Assembly (NCBI GenBank): GCA_951406725.2
Contig: OX597818.1
Span: 92,256,001 to 92,320,000 of the forward strand
Origin: Octopus vulgaris
Lineage: Eukaryota
Length of the DNA stretch: 64,000 nucleotides
Reading direction: 5' to 3'
Shown here piece after piece: positions 7,991 through 64,000 of the stretch. The stretch's first letter is position 1; the number at the start of each line of letters is the position of its first letter. The position numbers and the translations under genes were made by a program. A model generated the notes under the pieces. It was given only the letters and a program-made list of their open reading frames with translations. It was not told the DNA's origin and made no database searches.

Positions 7991-9103
7991 CAGGCCCTTT
8001 CGGAACATTCACGATGTGAATTTTCCGAGTCCTCTCCCCATCACCACCCCTTTCGCGAGCGCGCAATGTTTTCGTCATATTCGTTTAGAGCAAGTTGTTT
8101 TACACCTATTACACAATTTTCTTTTTTTTTTTTTTTGTTCCCAGGTCAGACCCTTAGGCCCTTTCGGAACATTCACGATGGGAATTTTCCGAGTCCTCTC
8201 CCCATCACCACTCCTTTCGCGAGCGCGCAATGTTTTTGTCATATTCGTTTAGAGCAAGTTGTTTTACACCTATTACACAATTTTCTTTTTTTTTTTTTTT
8301 GTTCCCAGGTCAGACCCTCAGGCCCTTTCGGAACATTCACGATGGGAATTTTCCGAGTCCTCTCCCCATCACCACCCCTTTCGCGAGCGCGCAATGTTTT
8401 TTGTCATATTCGTTTAGAGCAAGTTGTTTTACACCTATTACACAATTTTCTTTTTTTTTGTTCCCAGGTCAGACCCTCAGGCCCTTTCGGAACATTCACG
8501 ATGGGAATTTTCCGAGTCCTCTCCCCATCACCACCCCTTTCGCGCGCGCGCAATGTTTTTGTCATATTCGTTTAGAGCAAGTTGTTTTACACCTATTACA
8601 CAATTTTCTTTTTTTTTTTTGTTCCCAGGTCAGACCCTCAGGCCCTTTCGGAACATTCACGATGGGAATTTTCCGAGTCCTCTCCCCATCACCACCCCTT
8701 TCGCGAGCGCGCAATGTTTTTTGTCATATTCGTTTAGAGCAAGTTGTTTTACACCTATTACACAATTTTCTTTTTTTTTTTTGTTCCCAGGTCAGACCCT
8801 CAGGCCCTTTCGGAACATTCACGATGGGAATTTTCCGAGTCCTCTCCCCATCACCACCCCTTTCGCGAGCGCGCAATGTTTTTTGTCATATTCGTTTAGA
8901 GCAAGTTGTTTTACACCTATTACACAATTTTCTTTTTTTTTTTTTGTTCCCAGGTCAGACCCTCAGGCCCTTTCGGAACATTCACGATGGGAATTTTCCG
9001 AGTCCTCTCCCCATCACCACCCCTTTCGCGAGCGCGCAATGTTTTTGTCATATTCGTTTAGAGCAAGTTGTTTTACACCTATTACACTATTTTTTTTTTT
9101 TTT
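7991..9103. repeat. ~162-bp satellite, about 7 near-identical copies
   Basis: Unit starts at 7991, 8155, 8319, 8478, 8639, 8801 and 8964; differences are mainly poly-T length. Confidence 0.95.
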
Positions 9104-19705: not shown

Positions 19706-19744
<39 letters not shown>

Positions 19745-19946
19745 GCAATAATAATTCTCTAAAAGGGATATAGACAGTAACTGCTCGATAACATAAGGGA
19801 CTAAAGCCATCTGAATATGGCTAGGGACAGGGCAGGGTGGTGGGGGTGTTACTGTTGCATTTAGCCCCAGGCGAACATCGACGTCACCAGAAAGGCTCGA
19901 CACCGTCACGGTGCCCTAAACCTGCAAAGGGAGGTAATTCCCCGAT

Positions 19947-20020
19947 GAAGCGGAAACCACACACGGACCATGGTTTCAAGGTGTATTGCCTATCATCGGC
20001 GTGTGGTAGGCCTCCGCTTC
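19947..20020 (-). ncRNA. Type I hammerhead ribozyme, minus strand; further copies at 20307-20380, 20667-20740, 21027-21100 and 21386-21459
   Basis: Reverse complement of the 21721-21794 motif in each 360-bp unit. Confidence 0.75.
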
Positions 20021-21720
20021 CTCGACGAATTCTCCCTCTGCAGGATTTTCTTATATAGATTTTCAAGCAAAATACATTTGCTGATTTCGAAAATCTGTTC
20101 GAAAGCAATAATAATTCTCTAAAAGGGATATAGACAGTAACTGCTCGATAACATAAGGGACTAAAGCCATCTGAATATGGCTAGGGACAGGGCAGGGTGG
20201 TGGGGGTGTTACTGTTGCATTTAGCCCCAGGCGAACATCGACGTCACCAGAAAGGCTCGACACCGTCACGGTGCCCTAAACCTGCAAAGGGAGGTAATTC
20301 CCCGATGAAGCGGAAACCACACACGGACCATGGTTTCAAGGTGTATTGCCTATCATCGGCGTGTGGTAGGCCTCCGCTTCCTCGACGAATTCTCCCTCTG
20401 CAGGATTTTCTTATATAGATTTTCAAGCAAAATACATTTGCTGATTTCGAAAATCTGTTCGAAAGCAATAATAATTCTCTAAAAGGGATATAGACAGTAA
20501 CTGCTCGATAACATAAGGGACTAAAGCCATCTGAATATGGCTAGGGACAGGGCAGGGTGGTGGGGGTGTTACTGTTGCATTTAGCCCCAGGCGAACATCG
20601 ACGTCACCAGAAAGGCTCGACACCGTCACGGTGCCCTAAACCTGCAAAGGGAGGTAATTCCCCGATGAAGCGGAAACCACACACGGACCATGGTTTCAAG
20701 GTGTATTGCCTATCATCGGCGTGTGGTAGGCCTCCGCTTCCTCGACGAATTCTCCCTCTGCAGGATTTTCTTATATAGATTTTCAAGCAAAATACATTTG
20801 CTGATTTCGAAAATCTGTTCGAAAGCAATAATAATTCTCTAAAAGGGATATAGACAGTAACTGCTCGATAACATAAGGGACTAAAGCCATCTGAATATGG
20901 CTAGGGACAGGGCAGGGTGGTGGGGGTGTTACTGTTGCATTTAGCCCCAGGCGAACATCGACGTCACCAGAAAGGCTCGACACCGTCACGGTGCCCTAAA
21001 CCTGCAAAGGGAGGTAATTCCCCGATGAAGCGGAAACCACACACGGACCATGGTTTCAAGGTGTATTGCCTATCATCGGCGTGTGGTAGGCCTCCGCTTC
21101 CTCGACGAATTCTCCTCTGCAGGATTTTCTTATATAGATTTTCAAGCAAAATACATTTGCTGATTTCGAAAATCTGTTCGAAAGCAATAATAATTCTCTA
21201 AAAGGGATATAGACAGTAACTGCTCGATAACATAAGGGACTAAAGCCATCTGAATATGGCTAGGGACAGGGCAGGGTGGTGGGGGTGTTACTGTTGCATT
21301 TAGCCCCAGGCGAACATCGACGTCACCAGAAAGGCTCGACACCGTCACGGTGCCCTAAACCTGCAAAGGGAGGTAATTCCCCGATGAAGCGGAAACCACA
21401 CACGGACCATGGTTTCAAGGTGTATTGCCTATCATCGGCGTGTGGTAGGCCTCCGCTTCCTCGACGAATTCTCCCTCTGCAGGATTTTCTTATATAGATT
21501 TTCAAGCAAAATACATTTGCTGATTTCGAAAATCTGTTCGAAAGCAATAATAATTCTCTAAAAGGGATATAGACAGTAACTGCTCGATAACATAAGGGAC
21601 TAACTGTCTATATCCCTTTTAGAGAATTATTATTGCTTTCGAACAGATTTTCGAAATCAGCAAATGTATTTTGCTTGAAAATCTATATAAGAAAATCCTG
21701 CAGAGGGAGAATTCGTCGAG

Positions 21721-21794
21721 GAAGCGGAGGCCTACCACACGCCGATGATAGGCAATACACCTTGAAACCATGGTCCGTGTGTGGTTTCCGCTTC
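21721..21794 (+). ncRNA. Type I hammerhead ribozyme (core variant CCGAUGA, GUC site); further + copies at 22080-22153 and 22440-22513
   Basis: accacacg CCGATGA taggcaatacacctt GAAA c catg g TC cgtgtgtggt; distal stem I gaagcgga/tccgcttc; predicted cleavage after 21775. Confidence 0.75.
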
Positions 21795-22668
21795 ATCGGG
21801 GAATTACCTCCTTTGCAGGTTTAGGGCACCGTGACGGTGTCGAGCCTTTCTGGTGACGTCGATGTTCGCCTGGGGCTAAATGCAACAGTAACACCCCCAC
21901 CACCCTGCCCTGTCCCTAGCCATATTCAGATGGCTTTAGTCCCTTATGTTATCGAGCAGTTACTGTCTATATCCCTTTTAGAGAATTATTATTGCTTTCG
22001 AACAGATTTTCGAAATCAGCAAATGTATTTTGCTTGAAAATCTATATAAGAAAATCCTGCAGAGGGAGAATTCGTCGAGGAAGCGGAGGCCTACCACACG
22101 CCGATGATAGGCAATACACCTTGAAACCATGGTCCGTGTGTGGTTTCCGCTTCATCGGGGAATTACCTCCCTTTGCAGGTTTAGGGCACCGTGACGGTGT
22201 CGAGCCTTTCTGGTGACGTCGATGTTCGCCTGGGGCTAAATGCAACAGTAACACCCCCACCACCCTGCCCTGTCCCTAGCCATATTCAGATGGCTTTAGT
22301 CCCTTATGTTATCGAGCAGTTACTGTCTATATCCCTTTTAGAGAATTATTATTGCTTTCGAACAGATTTTCGAAATCAGCAAATGTATTTTGCTTGAAAA
22401 TCTATATAAGAAAATCCTGCAGAGGGAGAATTCGTCGAGGAAGCGGAGGCCTACCACACGCCGATGATAGGCAATACACCTTGAAACCATGGTCCGTGTG
22501 TGGTTTCCGCTTCATCGGGGAATTACCTCCCTTTGCAGGTTTAGGGCACCGTGACGGTGTCGAGCCTTTCTGGTGACGTCGATGTTCGCCTGGGGCTAAA
22601 TGCAACAGTAACACCCCCACCACCCTGCCCTGTCCCTAGCCATATTCAGATGGCTTTAGTCCCTTATG

Positions 22669-22752
<84 letters not shown>

Positions 22753-27683: not shown

Positions 27684-27758
27684 ATGGTACCTCGCCAGTT
27701 CCTGATGTTCGTTGTTGTTTTCCATTTGGGTATAACAGCCTATGGAAACCAAAATCCG
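27684..27758 (+). CDS. ITIH-like gene exon 1 (signal peptide MVPRQFLMFVVVFHLGITAYGNQNP)
   Basis: ATG at 27684, hydrophobic signal-peptide-like stretch, donor CCG|gtaagt, phase 0 matching exon 2. Confidence 0.75.
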
Positions 27759-35045: not shown

Positions 35046-35203
35046 AAAGCAACCCTGAAATCCATTCATGTAATCAGCGATATTAAATATCGATATGCTA
35101 CCACTCTAGTTTCCATGAAGTATTATAACACATACAATTCTGCTGTCACTGCAGACTTACATGTAAACATGCCTCGCCATTCATTTATATCAAATTTCTC
35201 CAT
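35046..35203 (+). CDS. ITIH-like exon 2 (VIT domain start: KATLKSIHVISDIKYRYATTLV...MPRHSFISNFSM)
   Basis: tttgtcttttcag acceptor, AT|gtaagt donor; VIT-type motifs RYATT and FISNFSM. Confidence 0.9.
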
Positions 35204-37482: not shown

Positions 37483-37593
37483 GGAAATTGATGGAAATGT
37501 GACTGTGGGAGAAGTAAAAAAGAAATCGGAAGCAAAACGTATTTTCGACTATGCCATTGAAACTGGGCAAAGTGCTGGCCATGTTGCTGTGGA
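37483..37593 (+). CDS. ITIH-like exon 3 (EIDGNVTVGEVKKKSEAKRIFDYAIETGQSAGHV)
   Basis: tttcag acceptor, GA|gtaaag donor, 111 nt phase 2-2; VIT motif GEVKxKxEA...GQSAGHV. Confidence 0.9.
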
Positions 37594-37694
37594 GTAAAGT
37601 ATCATTTTCTCTTACTTGACACTTATCAATCTAAGTTTTCCAATGAAAATATAACTTCAACATGTTTTAAACAATATTTTCTATCATTTTCCAG

Positions 37695-37945
37695 ACACCG
37701 CTTCACAAATGTTTTTGATATATCTGTTAATGTTGAACCACAAAAGTATGTAGTTTACAACTTGACTTATCAAGAACTTCTGACACGAGAGAACAATAAA
37801 TACAGGCACGTCATCCATTTGACCAATGGTGGAATTGTTGATGACTTTTTAGTTGAGGTTTTCATTAGGGAACCGCAAGACATTATTAATGTGTCTGTAC
37901 CAGAAATTAAAGATGATAAAGCAACAAATTTTTATGAAACCAAAG
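37695..37945 (+). CDS. ITIH-like exon 4 (FDISVNVEPQ...LTYQELLTR...)
   Basis: ttttccag acceptor, G|gtaggt donor; VIT end motif LTYQELL; overlaps ORF 37762..37953. Confidence 0.9.
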
Positions 37946-43529: not shown

Positions 43530-43693
43530 AGCTGGAATATGCTTCAGTTGACTACATCAACAGTAAAGAAGTTTACATCAAATACAACCCAAATCGTGAA
43601 CAACAAGAAGAAATTTCAAAGGAAAATGGTATTGTCGGCTTGTTCAAAGTGGCATATGACGTGGATCGTGCAAATAATTCAAATTTTATATAT
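43530..43693 (+). CDS. ITIH-like exon 5 (YIKYNPNREQQ...GIVGLFKVAYDVDR)
   Basis: tttttgaacag acceptor, TAT|gtaagc donor, phase 1-0; ITIH motif GxFxVxYDVxR. Confidence 0.88.
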
Positions 43694-46217: not shown

Positions 46218-46506
46218 GCAGTTGATGGCTACTTTGTACATTTCTTCACTGCTGATTTCTTAAAACCTCTTCCAAAGCACATAATATTTATACTTGATGT
46301 CAGTGGATCAATGTCTGGTACTAAAATTCAACAACTGAAAGAAGCTATGGAAAATATCCTCGATCAACTTGACCCAAAACTTGATAAATTTCTCATCGGA
46401 AAATTCAGCGGTGATGTCAATTGGATGGAGATTAATTTTTTATTCGCAAAAGAAGAAAATATAAAACGAGCAAAAACTCATATTAAGAATATTAGCGCCT
46501 CGGGAG
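46218..46506 (+). CDS. ITIH-like exon 6 (DGYFVHFF...vWA MIDAS DVSGS)
   Basis: ttcatag acceptor, G|gtaagt donor; GYFVHFF and FILDVSGSMSGTKIQQLKEAM are ITIH hallmarks. Confidence 0.95.
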
Positions 46507-47796: not shown

Positions 47797-48506
47797 GTAC
47801 AAATATAAACGCTGCTCTCCTTGAAAGTATAGACAAACATAAATCCGCTGCTGAAAGAGTTTTACCCACCAAGACTAAAAATATCATCATATTTCTCACT
47901 GATGGTCATCCAACAGAAGAGGAAAGCTCTACAGAAAATATCAAGAGAAATGTAAGAGAGGCCAACAAAGAGATTTCATTATTTACTCTTGGTTTCGGAG
48001 AAGATTGTGACCATAAATTTCTACGTGAGATTGCCATGGAAAATGGAGGCTTTAGTAGGAAGATCTACGTTGACTCTGACAGTAGACTTCAAATTGAAAA
48101 TTTTTATAAAGAAATATCTAACATTTTATTAAAGGATATTACGTTTGTTTACTTAGATAGTGCTGTTAATACTAGTTCTACGTCATTTAGCAGCTACTTC
48201 AAAGGATCAGAATTAGTTGTTTCAGGTGTTTTGAAGGATAAAACCCAATCGACCATGCTACTAAAGGTAAACAAGACAGACAATACGGGACGAAATACTG
48301 ATATATTAAAATTGAATATCAATCTGAGTGGAATTGGAGATGACTTTACTCTATACGATGATCTTCCTGAAAATCCAGAATTGACAAGTGTTCAGTCATT
48401 TTCTGAAATTACTGAAAAGAGTTATGCTTACCTCACCCTGAAACAACTTCTCAAAAAAGAGAGAACAAGCCATGTGAAAACGAAAATTCTTAATCTGGCA
48501 CTTAAG
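47797..48506 (+). CDS. ITIH-like exon 7 (vWA: GTNINAAL, IIFLTDG, SLFTLGFG, YFKGSELVVSG, YAYLTLKQLL)
   Basis: ttccag acceptor, AAG|gtgagt donor, 710 nt phase 1-0; lies within ORF 47697..48551. Confidence 0.95.
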
Positions 48507-49289: not shown

Positions 49290-49855
49290 TTGGGTTGTCC
49301 GGAAAGTTCGCACCGATTTATAGTAGCTTACCTTTCGGCTTATTTTAGAACATGGTTGAGCCCATAAAATAGGATTTGATTACACCTCCATTTAGAGCAC
49401 AGTTTAAGCTATCTTTTCGTGGAAGATGGTTTATGTTCCTATTACCTGTGTTAATTCTGTAACCCTTTAAAATGGAAGATAAGAAAGTTCATTTTCGGCA
49501 CTTGATGCTTTGGGAACCAGACAAAAATTGCTGCGGCTCGGCTGGGATGTGTAACCCCACCCTCCATATTCGCCAGATATTGCTCCTTCGGATTTCCACT
49601 TATTCAGGTCACTGCAGAATAGTCTTAATGGTAAAAATTTCAATTCCTTGGATGACGTAAAAAGATACCTTGATGAATTCTTTGCCATGAAACCACCTCA
49701 ATTCTGGGAAGAGGGTATTTTCAAGTTAAAGGAAAGATGGAGTCGCATTGTGCAACAAAATGGTTCATATTATGTTGATTAAAAATGTAATGGCAAGTAT
49801 TTATTGACCTTTTACTTTCCTTTAAAAATCGGCACGAACTTTCCGGACAACCCAA
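49290..49855 (+). mobile_element. Internally deleted mariner element (same family as 5379-5916)
   Basis: TIRs ttgggttgtccggaaagttcg / cgaactttccggacaacccaa; HPPYSPDIAPSDFHLFRSL mariner motif. Confidence 0.92.
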
Positions 49856-50261
49856 TGCATCTTTTAATTTGTTTCTTTGTTATGACGGACTCATTGTATC
49901 TGTAATTTATTCCATCATGAATTCTTTATCATTTATTCCTTACATAATGACGTCTTGCTTACAGAAATATTTCTTAGGCATATTTCCAACTTTTTCCGCA
50001 AAATATTTTGTATTAAAAACCTCTTGGAAAAGTCGACCTTTTGAACAAAGAGGCAAAATTAAATGTTTTTATTCCTTTAGTCTAGCAATCTTCAATCTTA
50101 GCCATTCAAAGTTCCTGAAGCTTATTCATTACCATCAAAAATATACCAACAATGAAAGCATGAAATATAAAGTTGATGGAGTTTTAATCGTCATTGTTAT
50201 GTATTGTAACATTGTTTCATATTTCTGTGGTACTAAAATGTAATATTCTTCCTTGTGACAG

Positions 50262-50337
50262 TATAATTTTGTAACACCATTAACATCAATGGTTGTCACC
50301 AAATCTACAGTTAAAGAGAAACATTTTGGCCAAAACG
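50262..50337 (+). CDS. ITIH-like exon 8 (YNFVTPLTSMVVTK...)
   Basis: gtgacag acceptor, G|gtaagt donor; conserved ITIH motif YxFVTPLTSMVVTK. Confidence 0.93.
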
Positions 50338-54498: not shown

Positions 54499-56356
54499 TC
54501 GCTTTACTGAAGTCAAGGTATATGACGTCAGAGTTCGAACCTGTTCCCAAGGCTTTGAGTACATCTTCAATGTGGTGTAAGAGCTGTGTTAGACAGTCCC
54601 TGCCACAGCGAAAGCCATGTTGATTTGAATTTAGGAGTTTGTGGGTCTCCAGGAAGTCAGCTATCCTTGATCTTAACACTCTTTCAAACACTTTAATGAT
54701 GTGGGAGGTGAGTGAGATTGGGCGATAGTTGACTGCGAGGGATCTGTTTCCCTGTTTGAAAACCGGGATGACCGACTGGGATAGAAACTTATTCGGTATA
54801 TAACCTGCGTCTAATGAGTTTCTCCAGAGGTTGGTCAGAGGGACTGCCAGTTGATATCTACATTCCTTCAGGAGACTGGCGGGAAATCTATCAGGGCCTA
54901 CAGCGGAGTAATGTTTGACCTCATTTATTGCTGCTACGATGTCGGTGGCAGTGAAGGTTATGTCTGCGATTTTGTGTTGGGAGTCAGCTTCGTTCGTTTC
55001 CCTCACATCAATATCAGTGGGAACACTGAAGACAGAGCAATATTGTTTCTGCAGTATTTCTGCCATTTCTTTAGCATCGTGTTGGGGAATGCCGTTTTCA
55101 TCAATCAATGGCCCAATAGGTGAGACAGTGGTTCTATGCTTATTTGCATAAGAATAGAACACTTTTGGGTTCTGTTTGATGTTTTTGATTACCCATTGTT
55201 CCTCCACAGCTCTTTGATTTTCAATGGAGGTTTTCATGTTAGTCTGCAGATGAAGTTTTTCCAGCTCTAGTCTTTTCATTGTTGTTGAATGTGGATGTTG
55301 CGTGTGGGAATATTTTAATTGGTTGATTTTTTTGTTGAGTCTTTTGATGCGCCTGATGAGTGTTTTTTTCTTTTTAGGGAGCCGGTTTCTGTTTGTGTTA
55401 GTAGATTTCTTGGGAGCGTGTTTAGAGCATGTGTCGGTGACAATGGTTTCAAAGTGCTGCCACGCGGTCTCAATATGAGGGGAATTGAGAGTAAAAGACC
55501 AGTCGATGGAAGACAGATCCTTTCTGATTGTTCCCCAGTCCGCTTTGTGGAAATTTATGTTGTCAAATGGGTGCCATGGAGTGGGATTGGCTGGTTTGGT
55601 TTTTATACGTCGGGAATTAAGATTGCAGAGTACCATGTCGTGGTCTGAGAGGAGAGTTTTTTCGACTGAAATGCTGTGAACGTAGCTAGAGTGATTGGTC
55701 AGTACCAGATCCAAGATCGTTTTATTCTGTCTCGTTGGTTCAAGCACTAGCTGAGTCAGGAAATACTCATCCATCAGATTAAAGAGCAGTTCTGCTGCTG
55801 CCCTATCTGATGTAGAGCACTTGCCTAACTTCGGAGTATTTGTGGGCCAGTTCACATGAGGGAGGTTAAAATCACCCATCACTATTATGTTTCCGGAGTG
55901 GTACTTCCGAAGGAAGGACTTGACTTTGCTAAGGCACTCTTCAAAGTACTTTAGAGGTGCCTGGGGAGGCCTGTAAAGACCAACAATGGTTATGTCCTTG
56001 GCTTTGTTGTATACTGATACCGATTCACAGTAGCCATTGGAAAATGTGTCCTTGGCATCAAGTGAAAAGGAGTCATGGATAAAGATGGCTGTCCCTCCCT
56101 TATTTCGGTCTGTGCGATCTGCACGAACAATGGTGAAATCTTTTATTTTCACCTCTGCGTCCATATGGGTGTTGTTCAGGTGAGTCTCGGTAAGGATAAA
56201 GAAAGGGAAGCAATGTGCCATTTCGGCAAGCCAACTCTCTATATATGGGATCTTCCATTTTTGGGCAATAATTGATGGGTTGATGCCACGTACATTTAAC
56301 AGGAATGTCGAGGTAAGGGAAGTTGGTAATGGGTGAGTGGTCCTTGTGATTTGCAT
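54499..56356 (-). CDS. LINE ORF2 (APE endonuclease plus N-terminal part of RT), CR1/L2-type, 3'-truncated
   Basis: LNVRG, LTETHL, GGT, YRPP, MGDFN, LDLVL, SDH (APE); GPD, NYRPISLTS, QHGFR, DVIYLDFSKA (RT); then breaks into SINE sequence. Confidence 0.92.
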
Positions 56357-57567
56357 AGATGGTTGGTGATGGCTCGCTGGATCTCCTGGCTTAGGTCGGC
56401 CTTCATATTTTCCAGGTATGTCAGTAAAAAAGAGTTACTTGTTTGGTTTGCCACTTGGTCAGAGGATACATATTTCAAGTTGGCGTTATTTGGTGTTTTT
56501 TCCTGGTTCTGTCTACGTAGTTTGATTGTAGGAGGGGAAACGTGGTTGTATTTTGTTCTTGTTGTTGTCCTAGATTTCCTCTGTTCCTGTTCATATCTAT
56601 TCTGTGATCGTTTTGTGCCCTTCAGATGGTGGTTGTTGCATTCTGGGTTCAGGCACATCCTTTGTGAGACAGAAGTTTGGCACAGTTTAGGATGGAATAA
56701 GGTGCATCTATTGCCTCTTATGCATCCGTATTTAGGGTCAGAACCATAGATTCTGTATTTAGGACAGTATTTGGGGTGGAGGTGGGGGCAATTTTTTCCT
56801 GTTATACCGTATGGACAGGTGCCCATAGCAAGTCTACGACATAAGGTCGGGTGGGGAAAAGCACAGCGTCCATTTTTGTTTGTGCCGCTGGGGCCAAATC
56901 TACAAGTGTCTTTAGAATAGTAACGGCAGGGGGTTTTATTTGGTTGTAGTAGTGGTTTTTCTATTTTGGCAGTAGTAGTAGTGGTGGTGGTGGTGGTGGT
57001 GTTAGAAGCAGCTTGTTGATTTTGTGATGGTGGGTTCTGGCTTGCCAGTATGTGGTCAAATCTGCAGCTGCCTTGAGAGTAGTAGTGGCAGATGGTTTTA
57101 CGCGGATGTAGTAGTGGTTTTCCTATTGTGGCAGTAGTGGGGAGTTGTAGCAGCATTGGAACTTGACTAGTGGTAGTATTAGAGTGTTGTTGTTGTTGTT
57201 TTTGTTGCTGTAGCGAAGGTGAGACTTGACTTGGTTCATCAGGTGCTGTTGTCAATGGAAGTAGGTCAGTTGATTGTTGCTGTTGAAGTGACCACTGACC
57301 TGTTGGGATTTGGTCATTTGTTGTACTGGATTCGTTGGCAAGAATGGCTTTTAGTGTAGCCATGTGCGCGTGAAAAATAGGGAATATCCTAACAATTTCT
57401 TTTAATTTATTTTCTATCTGTTTTACAGATCTGTGAAAGGATTTTTTCGTTAAATCCTCAGTTATTTTGCTATAAACATTAGCTTCGTTGTGATGGATGA
57501 ACCAAGCGTTAATCATTGCAGTAATTTTATTTTCAACCCAGCGGCGTTTTTGAAAATTATTGGCCAT
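56296..57567 (-). CDS. LINE ORF1 with repeated CCCH-type zinc fingers and Q/T-rich linkers
   Basis: Open frame from MANNFQ; motifs CRYYSKDTCRFG...CAFPHP, CRRLAMGTCPYG...CPHLHP, CPKY...C...CTLFHP, CQTS...C...CNNHH; overlaps ORF2 by 61 nt. Confidence 0.8.
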   Translation of the reverse strand: MANNFQKRRWVENKITAMINAWFIHHNEANVYSKITEDLTKKSFHRSVKQIENKLKEIVRIFPIFHAHMATLKAILANESSTTNDQIPTGQWSLQQQQSTDLLPLTTAPDEPSQVSPSLQQQKQQQQHSNTTTSQVPMLLQLPTTATIGKPLLHPRKTICHYYSQGSCRFDHILASQNPPSQNQQAASNTTTTTTTTTTAKIEKPLLQPNKTPCRYYSKDTCRFGPSGTNKNGRCAFPHPTLCRRLAMGTCPYGITGKNCPHLHPKYCPKYRIYGSDPKYGCIRGNRCTLFHPKLCQTSVSQRMCLNPECNNHHLKGTKRSQNRYEQEQRKSRTTTRTKYNHVSPPTIKLRRQNQEKTPNNANLKYVSSDQVANQTSNSFLLTYLENMKADLSQEIQRAITNHLCKSQGPLTHYQLPLPRHSC

Positions 57568-58489
57568 ATTCAGTGGGGTAGTGTTGTCTAATATATATAT
57601 GTATGTATGTGTATGCGTGTGTATGTATGTGTACACCAGTTATTGATGGCTTGATGTAAAATAGTGAACACACTGTTGAAAAGTTTGTGTCGATATACTC
57701 GGTAAATAGTGAATACACCGTTGGAAAGTTTGTGTCGATATACTCGGAAATTCGTGGCTTGTGTGTGTGAGAGTTCAGTGTAATTAGTACAATCTAATTT
57801 AATTAGTACAATCGGGATGAGCGGTGTGTTTGATACAGACCAAGAAAAAAGAATTGTACTCACGGGACTAGTTTTAGAACTAGTCTTGGGTTTAGTATTT
57901 AGTTTTGGGTTGTTCCTCTTTCTTCAGGTTGTATATAGATTTGTATAAATTTATCCTCCGATGGTAGTAAAAGAGTAGTATAGTAGGATTGTAGAGTTCA
58001 AAAGTCTTGAGATTAAAGACAAGGAGAGATTATGTTAGCTTGAGTTGAGTTGAGTTGAGTTAAATTGAGTTGAAAAATGCTTCTTTGGTTAGTTACTGAC
58101 GGGAGCTATAGAAAGTACGTCTTGTCACGACGACTGCCTGACTGGCTACTATATATATATATATACATACACATCTATGCATACACAGTACATATTCACA
58201 AAAACCCATACAGACACCCACAGATACACTCAGACATGCACACACAAGGAGACAGCGGTAAACACACACACACACACACATGCAAACACACATAAAAACA
58301 CACAAACACCAATACACAAACACACAAACACATGAATATGCAAAATACATACATACAAACATAAACACATACATGAATACCTACATACATAGCGCCCACA
58401 CACACACATTCATACATGTATACACACACTTACATGCATGCATGCTTACATACATACATACATACATACGTACATACATACATACATAC

Positions 58490-58555: not shown

Positions 58556-59072
58556 TATTCTAATGACAAATATGCCGAAACAAAAAATTGTTGATAACCA
58601 TTATAATTTATGCGTCGAAACAAACCGATAGAAATCTCTAAAAATTCGTTATTACCGTATTGGTCCAATTTACCGTATTGGTCCAATATATTAATTATAA
58701 ATAGATTAGTGTTCACTCCCGGATTCTATCACTCTGTGAAAGTTTCTAGTTCGAATCACACGTGCCTCGAGGTGCGCTGAAGATTTTTCTATTTTGGATA
58801 TATTTGGGGTACTTAGGTCTGCTCAGGACTTAGTGCTTGCTTTTTCCATGGGTATAAGTAAGTATTTCATTTATATCTCGCGTATCTGCCGCTGAAGAGG
58901 GGAAAATTTCTTATGAATTAACCCCGAAATTGGACCAATACGGTAATAACGAATTTTTTAGAGATTTCTATCGGTTTGTTTCGAGACGCATAAATTATAA
59001 TAGTTATCAACAATTTTTTGTTTCGGCATATTTGGCATTAGAATTTTTTCTTCTGCCCTTATCTTGTAAACT
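58551..59072. mobile_element. (TA)n-embedded fold-back element with one HHR
   Basis: 58558-58669 is an inverted copy of about 58927-59045; (TA)n on both sides. Confidence 0.75.
58879..58951 (+). ncRNA. Type I hammerhead ribozyme (CUGAAGA, AUA site)
   Basis: cgtatctgccg CTGAAGA gggg...cccc GAAA ttggaccaa TA cggtaataacg; stems I, II and III all pair; predicted cleavage after 58940. Confidence 0.8.
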
Positions 59073-59075
59073 ATG

Positions 59076-59106
<31 letters not shown>

Positions 59107-59179
59107 ATATATATGTATGTATATATATATGTATGTATATATATATATGTATGTATATATATATGTATGTATATATATA

Positions 59180-59227
<48 letters not shown>

Positions 59228-59500
59228 CACGGAGTAGACGAAGCAGAGGCGGCTGAAGAAGGGGAATTTTCCTTGTGTTGTATGTCTTGTACTCTGTTTT
59301 TTCGTTGTTCAAAAAAATGTCCGTTTCCATGGTTTTGTTTTTATGTTTTCGTTTCTCATTGTGTTCGACGTTTGTTTGGTGTCGTGTACCCATATATACA
59401 TGTATATATATTATATAGATATAGGTACGTACATATATGTATGTACATATGCATATGTTTTATTTATTATGTTGTTATATATATATATATATATATATAT

Positions 59501-59866
59501 ATAATCAAAAATAAGCAACAAGAATGGATCCGGTAATGTAGTACAATTGTTTCATACTATAACATTTTATTAAAAGCTGTAAATATTACAGCAGATATAA
59601 TGTTACTAATTGATTTGAGAATTTTATATTATTGGAAAACCTATATGAAATTACCTGAAGATTACTTGACATATTATATCTGCTGTAATATTTACAGCTT
59701 TTAATAAAATGTTATAGTATGAAACAATTGTACTAAATTACCGGATCCATTCTTGTTGCTTATTTTTTATTATAATCACCCCGCATATTTTTATGGGTAA
59801 TACCATAAAAAATTCTGGTGCATCTAAATTAAGTACCATATTCATTTGAACCTAAATTGTTTGCTG

Positions 59867-59869
<3 letters not shown>
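59501..59869. mobile_element. (TA)n-embedded fold-back element with a degenerate HHR (59648-59740)
   Basis: About 59501-59603 is inverted relative to about 59668-59773; CTGAAGA(59655), long stem II, GAAA c aatt g TA; first pair of stem I is mismatched. Confidence 0.6.
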
Positions 59870-59937
<68 letters not shown>

Positions 59938-60631
59938 CATACATACATACATACATACATACATACATACATACATACATACATACATACATAACATACA
60001 TACATGTATGTTTATGCGTGTCTTTGCGTCTGTGTTTGTATCCCACCAACGCTGGGGAGTAGTTTTGAAAAAAAATAGTCGTCTTGCCTTTTGCAATTAG
60101 TCCTACTTAATTTGATTTGGTGTTGAATTCAATGTGTTTTATTTTAATCTCTTTATATTTCGCATCGTTTTTTCTGAACATTTTCTTGTATATGTTTCCT
60201 GTTATTTTAAAACCTAATAGTAAATATGTATTTCTTCAGAAATTATTTTCACAAGCACGGCATAACTATTTTGTTGCGGTTCAACATTCCTAAAATATTT
60301 ATTGTCAGATATTTCATATTTAGTATACAACATTAATGGAAATCAGGTTTATGAAAAGTGGGCATAAAATATTTACATAATAGAAATAACATATCACTGT
60401 AAAATTTATGATATAATATAGTTGTGAAGGAAATATCACCGTTGAGCAGTAAACACACCACTAAATGACCACAAATAAGAATTACATTTCTTAGTCAAGC
60501 AGTGGTATTATTCCTTTCTAACAGATTTACATTAAACAACTAATTTAAACTATATGTAGCTTAATACGTTTAAACGACCGTATATGACAATTGATAAGTA
60601 TTTCCTAATAATTAAAATTCTTACATTTCAG

Positions 60632-60658
60632 GTAGGCGTAATCCATTCAGATTTAATC
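60632..60658 (+). CDS. 27-nt microexon (xRRNPFRFN) of the ITIH-like gene
   Basis: ttacatttcag acceptor and C|gtaagt donor, phase 1-1, compatible with exon 8 or 9. Confidence 0.6.
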
Positions 60659-60779
60659 GTAAGTAGACTATTTTGTTGTTTCATTTCACTTTATGTATGT
60701 TTCTTTAGTTAAAATCTTAAACAGCCGATTTTTATTTCTATCAACAAACACGGCATGTGTCTCTACGTAAAAAAATTAA

Positions 60780-61487
60780 TATATTCGAAATACACATTAT
60801 CGAAACAGCGTATATTGTTACAAAGCCCGACGGCTTAGAAGGTATGATAAAAGATTCTAATTTTATTATCAAAGCAAAATATTCAAAACAGACGCGAAGA
60901 AATTTTATAGGCAAATTGGTAAAACGATGATAGATGTAAAGGAGACATTTAAAATTGAAGACCTGGAAGAGTTCTGGAAGAAGATAACAATGAAAAGTTT
61001 AATGCTAAAATTGACGGGATAGAACGTGAGAAGGGGGCCACAGGATGTAATTGAAAAGATAGGGTTAGCTCTTATAAAGTCTTATTAATGGAAAATCCCG
61101 CGACCTGACTTCTAGCTGAATTGTTTGGGAGATGTACACGAAAATTTCACTATATCTCTAATTATCATTCAGAATCCCGAGCAAATATCTACCAAAATCT
61201 CATGATACAAAATTCCTGAAGAATTACCGACAAATGACATGTCTCAATACCACTTACATGACTCCTAAATCTATAATAACTGAAAGAATGTACACTTTCC
61301 TTGCACAGAACGTTATCCTTCCACAAGCACAGAAAGACAGTAAAATAATTCTTATGGGTGCAAAGATCAATTACCATAAATAGAACGAGTTTAGAAAGTT
61401 GCCGCAGCAAAGTAAAATACTGTGTACGCCGAAGATAGACTACACGAAAGCATTTGATAGTGTCCCACATCGATGGATACTCGAAGT

Positions 61488-61524
<37 letters not shown>

Positions 61525-61940
61525 ACTTCGAGTATATATAAGATCTTTCTTGCCATCTCCAAAAATTTACGAAACAGCATGCCCAAATAGACCACGTCTT
61601 TTTCTTAACCATAGTAATGGAATAAGCCATTCAATAGCTTCAGTATCACGCGAGGCATCCATTAAAGTGACTCCATGTCCTCATTACTTCTCTGCATGGC
61701 ACTAGTCCCACTTTCAAACCAATTGAACAACATCGGAATGCCTACAAAAGTCTTAGGATAATAAACCATTTCTTTTTGCATGGACAATCTGAAACCGTTT
61801 GCAAGAGATAGACGGGCTGCGAATAAGTGTTAAAGAGTTTAACAATGATATCTGGATGGATTTTGGCCTTGAGAAGTTTGCTAAAGCAAATTTGGATTGG
61901 ACAGAAGCTCAGACAAACAACATCCATTAAATTAGACACT
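60780..61940 (+). pseudogene. Decayed Dong/R4-like RT remnant
   Basis: IDYTKAFDSVPHRWILEVL (about 61435-61490) and a GLEK-like segment; many stops. Confidence 0.6.
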
Positions 61941-62570
61941 AGCATCAACTTGGCCCACACGAAATGCATAAACACGTAGGTATAATGCAGAGTTGGCATC
62001 AATTTTTCTTGCGAATCTACAAGCTTCCTTGACAACAGAATATAATTGTTTTCTTGTTCGTACACAAGTCGCAGCATATAGACCTCTGCACTGCATAAAT
62101 ACATGTTCATTCCTATAGTGGAGTTTCCATAGCATAACAATCCTTTTCCTTCAGTACTTTTATGTTGGTAAAAACCGTCAACGTCTGCCTAAAGGCAGTG
62201 AATGTTAGAGATCAATCATTTTCTTGTCTTCTTGCCCTTGCGTTGGAGTCCCAGAGGCGAGCAATTAATGATATCGAACTGTACTCGACAACTGGATTTG
62301 ACTACGTATGTTCTAATATGTTTAAACAGTAATATACTTTTTTTAAACAGTAATATACTTTTTAAACAGTAATATACTCTTTTGAAAGCGTTTTATCGAA
62401 CGTTTTAAGTATATTAAGAAATTTAATAGTAATTCACTTTAGCAGATAATGACTTTATTTGGAGGAAAATATTAAATAATTTCCTTTGAGCGACTATAGA
62501 TAAACCAAAAAATGTATATCTTAATAGCTTCAAAACTTATATATACATCATTCTTCTCTATTTTTTTCAG

Positions 62571-62585
62571 TTCGTCCTTCACATG
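62571..62585 (+). CDS. 15-nt microexon copy 1 (xRPSH)
   Basis: ttttttttcag|TTCGTCCTTCACATG|gtatgt, phase 1-1. Confidence 0.6.
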
Positions 62586-62872
62586 GTATGTAACTATTTA
62601 AATATTTCCAATTGCATTTTCCAGTTTAAAACAGTCATTTTCTAGTTTAAAACATTAAGTTGAGGTCTTAAGTCACATTATTGAATTCATAAGATGCTGT
62701 GTATATATTTTCAGATTGATTTGATTGTAATTCACTTTAGCAGTTAATAATTTTATTTGGAGGAAAATATTAAATTATTTCCTTTGAACGACTATAGATA
62801 AACCAAAAAAATGTATATCATAATAGCTTCAGAATTTATATGTACATCATTCTTCTCTATTTTCTTTTTCAG

Positions 62873-62887
62873 TTCGTCCTTCACAAG
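62873..62887 (+). CDS. 15-nt microexon copy 2 (VRPSQ)
   Basis: ctttttcag|TTCGTCCTTCACAAG|gtatgt, phase 1-1. Confidence 0.6.
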
Positions 62888-63168
62888 GTATGTAACTATT
62901 TCCAATTGCATTTTCCAGTTTAAAACAGTCATTTTCTAGTTTAAAACATTAATTTGAAGTCTTAATTCACATTATTGAATTCATAAGATACTGTGTATAT
63001 ACTTTCAGATTGATTTGATAGTAATTCACTTTAGCAGTTAATAATTTTATTTGGAGGAAAATATTAAATTATTTCCTTTGAATGAATATAGATAAACCAA
63101 AAAAATGTATATCATAATAGCTTCAGAATTTATATGTACATCATTCTTCTCTATTTTTTGGGTTTTAG

Positions 63169-63183
63169 TTCGTCCTTCAAAGG
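63169..63183 (+). CDS. 15-nt microexon copy 3 (VRPSK)
   Basis: ggttttag|TTCGTCCTTCAAAGG|gtatgt, phase 1-1. Confidence 0.55.
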
Positions 63184-63389
63184 GTATGTAACTATTTATA
63201 TATTTCCAATGGATTTTTCTCGTTTAAATCAGTTATTTTCTAGTTTAAAACATTAATTTTAGATTTTAATTCATATTATTGAATTCATAAGATGCTGTGT
63301 ATATATTTTCAGATTGATTTTATTATATTAACAATCTGAAAATATGGATAACTAATAATATAACATAAACACAAAAGATCATACACGTA

Positions 63390-63900
63390 CAGGGTGTTCG
63401 GACTAAATTTAACAGTTTGGATACAAGGAAGAGAAAATACAATATTCCATACTGAATTAGAAGGATTTTTAAATAACTAAACTTATCAACAAGATGGCTA
63501 GCAAATGGGTGTTTACTGAAAGGAGCCGTCCTCAGCTCCCATCTAAGCCTCACAACGGATCCGGAACCTGGTTCATGCGTTCCTCACTGTGTTCCTGAGA
63601 AGATTTTTGAACACCTTCGTCTTGACACCCAGCCTGGCCTCTGTGTTGAAAGCAGAGTAGATAGTTATCTTTCTCACCTGCTTCCATACACGGTAATCCA
63701 TTTGATTAAAATCGGAGAATCAGGATGCCCGAAACTGGGGTTGGTGTAGCCATAAGAATTCTCCGACAGCCATTTCTGATTCTTTCCAGTATTATAACAA
63801 AGAGCTAAATCCTGCAGCTACACACATGGCCTTCACGCAGCAGCCCTATACAGTCAGGGGTTGACTGCTTCACATAGTCGTCTGAACTGAGATTAAGGGG
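63390..63900 (-). mobile_element. Degraded Tc1/mariner-like relic
   Basis: ta-cagggtgt TIR-like end; decayed transposase-like sequence on minus strand. Confidence 0.4.
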
Positions 63901-64000
63901 TCTATTTAAAATTGTAGCAATCAACCCATGCGTGCGAACGCAGTCGTAAGTGACCATTCATGAATGTCACAATTTTGTAAACTCCGATGCAACTGTCCAG

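Follow-up and report, generated by a model that had tools for sequence, protein, structure and literature searches.

Described bait regions and tandem microexons

By function, the nearest described counterparts of the octopus locus presented here are human ITIH4 and the bait regions of invertebrate A2M/TEP proteins; by architecture, the nearest are SmPoMuc of Schistosoma and the schistosome MEGs. In the accessible part of its published account (PMC7793589), ITIH4 has a VIT and vWA core with MIDAS and no bikunin-linkage motif, and right behind the FVTPLTSMVVTK motif it carries a long, variable Pro/Arg-rich segment that leads into a C-terminal domain; the octopus gene is alike in these respects. 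The same excerpts describe ITIH4 residues 633-713, which follow the FVTPLTS motif and vary strongly between species, as a segment cut by many proteases, with MASPs and kallikrein cutting at RR/RL sites, and report that cleavage leads to a MIDAS-dependent inhibitory complex and a freed C-terminal fragment (PMC7793589). The octopus segment, unlike that of ITIH4, is built from tandem exons of 15-30 nt, with skips, copy-number change and at least six paralogs; its C-terminal domain has no ITI_HC_C match, and protease trapping is argued here by analogy. For a paralog, the best match among solved structures is human ITIH4 (E 1.6e-86, versus 1.6e-68 for ITIH1), in an alignment that runs through FVTPLTSMVVTK.

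Alternatively spliced bait regions are described for BgA2M, BgTEP2, Drosophila TEP2 and shrimp A2M in the available portion of PMC7016707, where this splice diversity is put forward as a way of catching a broader range of proteases. A secreted protein with a splice-diversified, protease-exposed region would be common to these systems and the octopus, but the A2M/TEP proteins form an unrelated thioester family with mostly mutually exclusive, larger exons (PMC7016707, as far as available), whereas the octopus microexons are additive. In SmPoMuc a 27-bp exon is repeated together with its introns (PMC2576457, in part), and the accessible accounts of SmPoMuc and the MEGs (PMC2576457; bioRxiv 10.1101/2023.06.21.545858) give several features that recur in the octopus: a short exon plus its flanking introns as the tandem unit, introns more similar than exons, and unequal crossing-over that changes the number of units. 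The schistosome genes differ, according to the same partial sources, in encoding parasite mucins or secreted proteins for which such exons supply most of the sequence, while in the octopus a conserved animal protein has the array inserted between its two folded parts. With 321 of its 2679 coding nucleotides in microexons and a conserved ITIH as host, the octopus gene is not of the schistosome-MEG type.

A literature search, mostly outside subscription journals, turned up neither a paper on microexons in cephalopod ITIH genes nor one on invertebrate ITIH acting as a bait, and the literature searched held nothing on the role of invertebrate ITIH-like proteins or on their cleavage, binding or inhibition. 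PMC11703226 and bioRxiv 10.64898/2026.09.05.749416, as far as available, likewise had nothing relevant.

The host gene

The window analysed here is a stretch of 64,000 nucleotides of the Octopus vulgaris genome (contig OX597818.1, positions 92,256,001 to 92,320,000); its features are collected in Table 1. The best protein matches of its large exons are octopus ITIH-like proteins, exons 6 and 7 match Pfam VWA, and the window exons align by tblastn onto an ortholog and paralogs that carry VIT and VWA domains in Pfam. By sequence, then, the gene is a member of the ITIH family, with VIT followed by vWA, and the protein matches and Pfam domains bear out an earlier, sequence-only reading of this DNA that had proposed an ITIH-like host.

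Table 1. Features of the octopus ITIH-like gene and its microexon array (window coordinates)
Feature	Position	Strand	Evidence
Exon 1: start codon, signal-peptide-like N-terminus	27684..27758	+	tblastn with ortholog; GT donor, open frame
Exon 2: VIT domain begins	35046..35203	+	tblastn with ortholog; Pfam; open frame
Exon 3 (VIT)	37483..37593	+	tblastn with ortholog; open frame
Exon 4	37695..37945	+	tblastn with ortholog; open frame
Exon 5	43530..43693	+	tblastn with ortholog; open frame
Exon 6: vWA first half, MIDAS DxSxS	46218..46506	+	Pfam VWA; motif; joined to exon 7 in 4/4 runs
Exon 7: vWA remainder, with the Thr and Asp positions of the MIDAS, plus the core region behind it	47797..48506	+	Pfam VWA; both sides spliced in 4/4 runs
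Exon 8: last exon of the core, with the FVTPLTSMVVTK motif; phase 1 end	50262..50337	+	tblastn with ortholog; RNA contigs X1 and X2 run on into the 27-nt exon
5.9-kb tandem duplication, first copy, with 27-nt and three 15-nt exons	58124..64003	+	4-nt microhomology, 2 SNPs, microsatellite length differences, one 294-bp deletion
27-nt phase-1 microexon (RRNPFRFN)	60632..60658	+	scan; present in RNA contigs from two studies; 6/8 residues as in ortholog
Three tandem units, 294-302 bp: intron piece, microexon, intron piece	62421..63320	+	TRF; unit comparison
15-nt phase-1 microexon (RPSH)	62571..62585	+	splice-site scan; peptide in ortholog RefSeq isoforms
15-nt phase-1 microexon (RPSQ); missing from downstream duplicate block	62873..62887	+	splice-site scan; peptide in ortholog
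15-nt phase-1 microexon (RPSK), acceptor weakest of the three	63169..63183	+	splice-site scan; 3/4 residues as in ortholog

The residues of the MIDAS are present in the window gene (motifs DVSGS, GGTNI and FLTDG) and line up with the ITIH4 positions S282/S284/T350; DxSxS is kept in all eight cephalopod proteins checked. DPHF is the processing motif of the bikunin-linked ITIH1/2/3/5 type. The window gene and the same number of cephalopod proteins checked (8/8) lack the DPH motif, and the cephalopod proteins searched with Pfam gave no match to ITI_HC_C (PF06668). Because DPH is absent and PF06668 is unmatched in the cephalopod proteins, the sequence places the window gene outside the bikunin-linked ITIH1/2/3/5 type, which requires both a processing motif and the ITI_HC_C domain according to the available part of PMC7793589.

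Twenty-six exons form a single open frame of 892 aa without a stop, or 785 aa when the microexons are left out. The protein search matches included no identical annotated protein. An 855-aa ORF in row 213 of the ink-proteome supplement (PMC10142993, seen as an excerpt) corresponds, by eye, to the next paralog but with exons 3-4 (37483-37945) of the window gene, and is either an assembly chimera or a product of gene conversion.

Two mobile-element-like stretches lie in the introns. Intron 7 holds a repeat at 49340-49860, to which many contigs from other copies align; its PYSPD motif is presumably that of a mariner-type transposase. The intron preceding the 27-nt exon contains a 447-codon open stretch on the minus strand (56299-57639), probably part of a mobile element.

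The 15-nt microexons and their repeat units

The three 15-nt exons sit in a tandem repeat that TRF resolves as a period of 294 with 3.0 copies and 90% matches, the three units differing pairwise by 5.9, 7.5 and 10.1%. Each unit contains a pyrimidine tract, a YAG, a 15-nt phase-1 exon (starting at 62571, 62873 and 63169) and a GTATGT donor, and the exon copies vary at the last full codon alone (CAT/CAA/AAG) with their splice sites kept; on both points the sequence-only reading was confirmed. Its proposal of exon-by-exon duplication likewise agrees with the copies, which comprise exon plus flanking intron. Like the 27-nt exon upstream, the 15-nt exons are in phase 1 at both ends, and skipping would, as proposed, be frame-safe throughout the array, in that all 136 possible forward junction codons are sense codons. 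One element of that reading was wrong: it had placed the repeats in a "tail" of the protein, but three further coding exons of a 173-aa domain lie beyond the array, making the encoded segment a linker.

The 15-nt exon with its splice sites has five matches in the 2.8-Gb genome, every one at this locus, and neither the reverse strand nor a reversed control pattern yielded any match in the same genome. The 296-bp unit has at least 11 genome matches, those listed falling within about 32 kb; with this clustering, a dispersed transposon or satellite was ruled out as the source of the units.

Two other repeats occur in the window. At 7991-9103 lies a 162-bp tandem repeat (6.9 copies by TRF), in each unit of which translation of the letters behind a T-rich tract and CAG again gives VRPS; at 19744-22672 a 360-bp repeat, 99% alike between copies, runs for 5.2 copies and then 3.0 in the opposite orientation, flanked by TA microsatellites.

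The full array and its 5.9-kb duplicate

The array is made up of about 15 symmetric microexons of 15-30 nt and extends about 28 kb beyond the window. All 15 candidates (321 nt in total) are flanked by AG/GT, begin and end in phase 1, and are multiples of 3 no longer than 30 nt. As the weight matrix behind this list was trained partly on these same exons, chance was judged with a generic splice scan that was not trained on them and that recovers 11 of the 15. Downstream of the 15-mers, 18-nt and 30-nt exons form four alternating pairs (contig 92330965 to 92348133). The 30-nt exons share homologous intron flanks with the 15-mers on both sides, and for that reason they are taken to be older members of one family with them.

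Decayed units are also present. One microexon copy at contig 92334629 has lost its donor, in another (contig 92349635) a repeat occupies the place of the exon, and a third, in the next paralog (contig 92413699), has a CT donor.

The second copy of the 5.9-kb duplication begins at the last base of the window (64000, contig 92320000) and holds the 27-nt exon again but only two 15-mers, one 294-bp unit having been cleanly lost. The two copies meet at a 4-nt microhomology and are apart by 2 SNPs, microsatellite length differences and a few 1-nt indels; loci across the junction agree with the assembly. The duplicate may be very young, or it may consist of two alleles that the assembly placed in tandem.

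Transcripts and the O. bimaculoides ortholog

Contigs from four runs of four studies, their kind guessed as RNA, were compared with the gene; for 59000-64000, no run recorded as RNA was listed. In all four runs exons 6-7 and 7-8 are joined at GT-AG, and, among the loose ends listed, contigs X1 and X2 pass from the end of exon 8 into the 27-nt exon, which is spliced in O. vulgaris. X2 continues 2 nt past that exon and reads TT where the genome has GT. TT starts the 15-mers but also the 30-nt exons, and X2 consequently does not single out a 15-mer. The 15-mers are likely included in transcripts, as judged from the ortholog models and these 2 nt of RNA.

The closest relative is a gene of O. bimaculoides with 518 of 609 core residues identical (85%). 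Its RefSeq isoforms XP_052823894-6 read NPFRFNY-FRPSQ-VRPSH-VRPSH, which, together with the loose ends of the RNA contigs, supports the reading NPFRFN-xRPSx-VRPSx predicted from the octopus letters. The RPS exons themselves are thus already present in public RefSeq models of this relative; an older UniRef model of the ortholog, on the other hand, ends before them, so that gene predictors can indeed miss such exons, as had been foreseen. The three isoforms vary by a 6- or 10-residue linker block, with the junction residue shifting as phase-1 skipping predicts, while all three RPS blocks are kept in every isoform; skipping is seen for neighbouring linker exons and not for the three 15-mers. The two species are alike in the NPFRFN and RPSx repeats with optional 6- and 10-residue blocks, but the downstream linker exons have diverged from O. 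bimaculoides (1-3 matches per 5-9 residues), and peptide similarity and loose splice scans gave no counterpart here for the ortholog blocks NDSSGVRR, KITLT, VLPAL and GKPATT. Searching the short proteins with the ortholog linker region gave none among 20 candidates.

The O. bimaculoides models further differ in ending soon after the linker by read-through of a donor. In O. vulgaris, read-through of the donor after the first C-terminal exon meets a stop within two codons (contig 92353400-92353425), and the resulting ending, KYASK, is that of all three O. bimaculoides RefSeq isoforms; it represents either an intronic-stop isoform or a model artefact.

Paralogs and other ITIH linkers

Six close paralogs lie on the same contig, with microexons in their linker intervals; annotated O. 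vulgaris proteins match paralogs there letter for letter. In 172 kb of these linker intervals, one of which was covered in part, the generic scan found 50 candidate short exons, 44 of them multiples of 3; the opposite strand gave 5 candidates (3 multiples of 3), and 225 kb of other forward sequence gave 21 (12 multiples of 3). Because 50 candidates (44 in frame) stand against 5 (3) and 21 (12), the linker microexons are not attributable to chance. Half of the candidate peptides (25/50) are present in the annotated proteins compared. Different paralogs have expanded different motifs (RPS, GLPP, PEAE and Thr-rich runs), and one is represented by five models whose sole differences are 5, 6 or 11 residues in the linker.

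For the next paralog, peptides were detected in O. vulgaris ink, and a transcript-derived ORF in the supplement of the same study (PMC10142993, available in part) holds six of eight predicted microexons. The junction residue expected from skipping one 18-nt exon is seen in this ORF, one other junction residue is unlike the genome, and one short segment is unmapped (PMC10142993, same excerpt). RRNPFRFN is absent from that supplement, where sequences are cut at about 400 residues, so its absence carries no weight for the window gene. At contig 92417489 the ink-proteome transcript in that excerpt (PMC10142993) has Arg at a junction codon for which His is predicted from the genome, as would result from an A-to-G difference, whether an allele or A-to-I editing.

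Seven linkers compared contain 10-33% Ser plus Thr and 8-26% Pro. One paralog linker is acidic, with 3% Arg. In Argonauta, a related linker with repeated VRPP..SH blocks occurs in one protein, and a linker with 33% Ser/Thr is mucin-like. Farther afield, ten Planococcus isoforms have the linker as their sole difference, in larger blocks of 19-82 residues, and ITIH-like isoforms of oyster differ in the linker by 2-4 residues.

Divergence of the exon copies

Divergence was expressed as minimal changes per site in the exon against about 100 nt of flank, a rough measure without a tree. The 15-mers do not differ significantly from their introns (3/15 versus 11/92, p 0.31), while the 30-nt exons (14/30 versus 24/100, p 0.017) and the 18-nt exons (18/18 versus 41/96, p 1.6e-6) diverge faster. 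In the next paralog the first class shows 5/24 versus 7/105 (p 0.047) and the 18-nt exons 1/18 versus 15/104 (p 0.94). Pooled over the five classes, replacement to silent changes are 35:3, where 74% replacement is expected (p 0.0045); this pool omits two other paralogs, in one of which several exon copies are identical. Gene conversion of introns has been proposed for SmPoMuc, in the part of PMC2576457 at hand; such conversion could account for the contrast between exon and flank but not for the scarcity of silent changes.

The linker and the C-terminal domain

In the linker of the window gene 19 of 107 residues are Arg. An AF2 model of the ortholog has a folded core, pLDDT below 50 at residues 600-703 (in part a result of the few aligned sequences that cover this stretch) and strands that resume afterwards; the linker is thus predicted to be unfolded between the VIT-vWA core and a C-terminal beta domain, and the 15-nt exons likely encode part of this disordered, Arg-/Pro-rich segment. 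The 173-aa C-terminal domain is encoded by the three exons past the array (contig 92353309-92356153) and shares 54% identity with its counterpart in an O. sinensis paralog. Compared with ITI_HC_C it gave a non-significant HHalign result (probability 0.55%, E 0.11). Profile searches recovered 13 proteins, the named ones from cephalopods, and no solved structure. With a model of pLDDT 56, Foldseek returned no match at E 0.001; the weak matches of this model at ranks 2-5 and 7-10 are VWD-bearing mucins (E 0.06-0.21).

What the array may do

In the mechanism we propose, exon and flanking intron are copied in tandem, as the copies themselves display, and unequal exchange would add or remove units. 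As every exon is phase 1-1, any subset would leave the frame intact; the 27-nt exon is spliced in, the 15-mers are likely included, and the ortholog and paralogs skip some linker exons in gene models and one transcript. The linker, predicted to lie unfolded between core and C-terminal beta domain, could then be cut by a protease, upon which, by the example of ITIH4, the C-terminal domain would come free while the protease stayed held by the core with its MIDAS, so that exon choice and exon divergence might set which proteases get caught.

The linker is a probable bait because of its ITIH4-like position, the MIDAS residues, the missing DPH motif and its Arg content. Whether the array is a splice-variable protease bait is, in our estimate, an evenly balanced question. 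In its favour are the intact 26-exon frame, the RNA joints and the isoform skips in ortholog and paralogs, as well as the predicted linker disorder and the 35:3 excess of replacements. Against it, the RNA contigs listed fully span no 15-mer, X2 stopping 2 nt in; the three RPS blocks are constant in the three ortholog isoforms; the 15-mers and the 18-nt exons of the next paralog are without a significant excess (p 0.31 and p 0.94); another paralog has identical exon copies and intron gene conversion is possible; and some paralog linkers are acidic, one with 3% Arg, or Thr-rich, and an Argonauta linker resembles mucin. With Pro after Arg, the RPS, RPH and RP sites make poor targets for trypsin-type proteases, the Arg-Pro bonds in the RPS repeats resisting such enzymes, and this counts against a bait. 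An ITIH4-like function of the window gene is thus proposed by resemblance.

Several other explanations share parts of this evidence. If the microexons are real but the linker is a spacer or tether, possibly O-glycosylated, in a matrix, mucus or ink protein, its length would matter and its sequence would not. Each paralog having grown its own motif, the Ser/Thr and Pro content of the seven linkers, the weak resemblance of the C-terminal domain to mucin VWD domains and the presence of the next paralog in the ink proteome (PMC10142993, as far as available) all fit such a protein, but the replacement excess in the 18- and 30-nt classes is unexpected if length alone matters and the linker position and MIDAS match ITIH4; we consider a spacer unlikely, though a serious contender. 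A linker that serves as a processing region, with cuts at basic residues that free the C-terminal domain or short peptides and no trapping by the core, appears quite improbable: the segment is Arg-rich and predicted to be disordered, release would need a protease as there is no DPH autocleavage motif, and ITIH4 cleavage likewise frees a C-terminal fragment (PMC7793589, accessible part), yet the MIDAS residues are kept in the window gene, as is DxSxS in 8/8 cephalopod proteins, and the many diverging exons exceed the needs of one processing site.

The decayed copies in the array (92334629) and in the next paralog, and a 5.9-kb duplicate that is very recent or allelic, would also be produced by near-neutral turnover, by which microexons that leave the frame intact are copied, drift and disappear within a tolerant loop, giving variation without function. 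The 35:3 ratio of replacement to silent changes and the maintenance of frame and GT/AG sites in 15 of 15 listed exons oppose this explanation, which we regard as decidedly unlikely. Finally, that no read was seen to span a whole 15-mer would be expected if the 296-bp units were an intronic tandem repeat and the 15-mers were not exons in O. vulgaris; but the ortholog models hold the same peptides at the expected place, the flanks are homologous to those of the 30-nt exons, and the 27-nt exon is joined in RNA to an exon that starts with TT, and this last explanation is very improbable indeed.

Implications for the family

To our knowledge, bait-and-hold inhibition by ITIH4 was described only in 2021, and in mammals only. 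What is new at the octopus locus is a family-wide, repeatedly rebuilt and partly fast-evolving microexon cassette at the position of the ITIH4 bait. A broader proposal, tentative and on balance doubtful, is that octopus ITIH-like proteins are protease traps with a hypervariable bait cassette, whose microexons are duplicated, positively selected, combined by splicing and allele-variable in number, such that each animal would have its own bait repertoire in secretions such as ink; the insect and oyster isoforms would then point to a wide occurrence of splice-variable ITIH baits among invertebrates, in parallel to the alpha-2-macroglobulin/TEP bait.

In this single array, exons of several ages can be seen arising, diverging and being lost. 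Should the linker be no more than a spacer, the locus is one more microexon array. If the protease-bait reading is right, the linker would make ITIH a second family, besides alpha-2-macroglobulin/TEP, with a splice-diversified invertebrate protease bait, and its natural isoforms, which differ by cassettes of 5-10 residues, would make specificity testable exon by exon.
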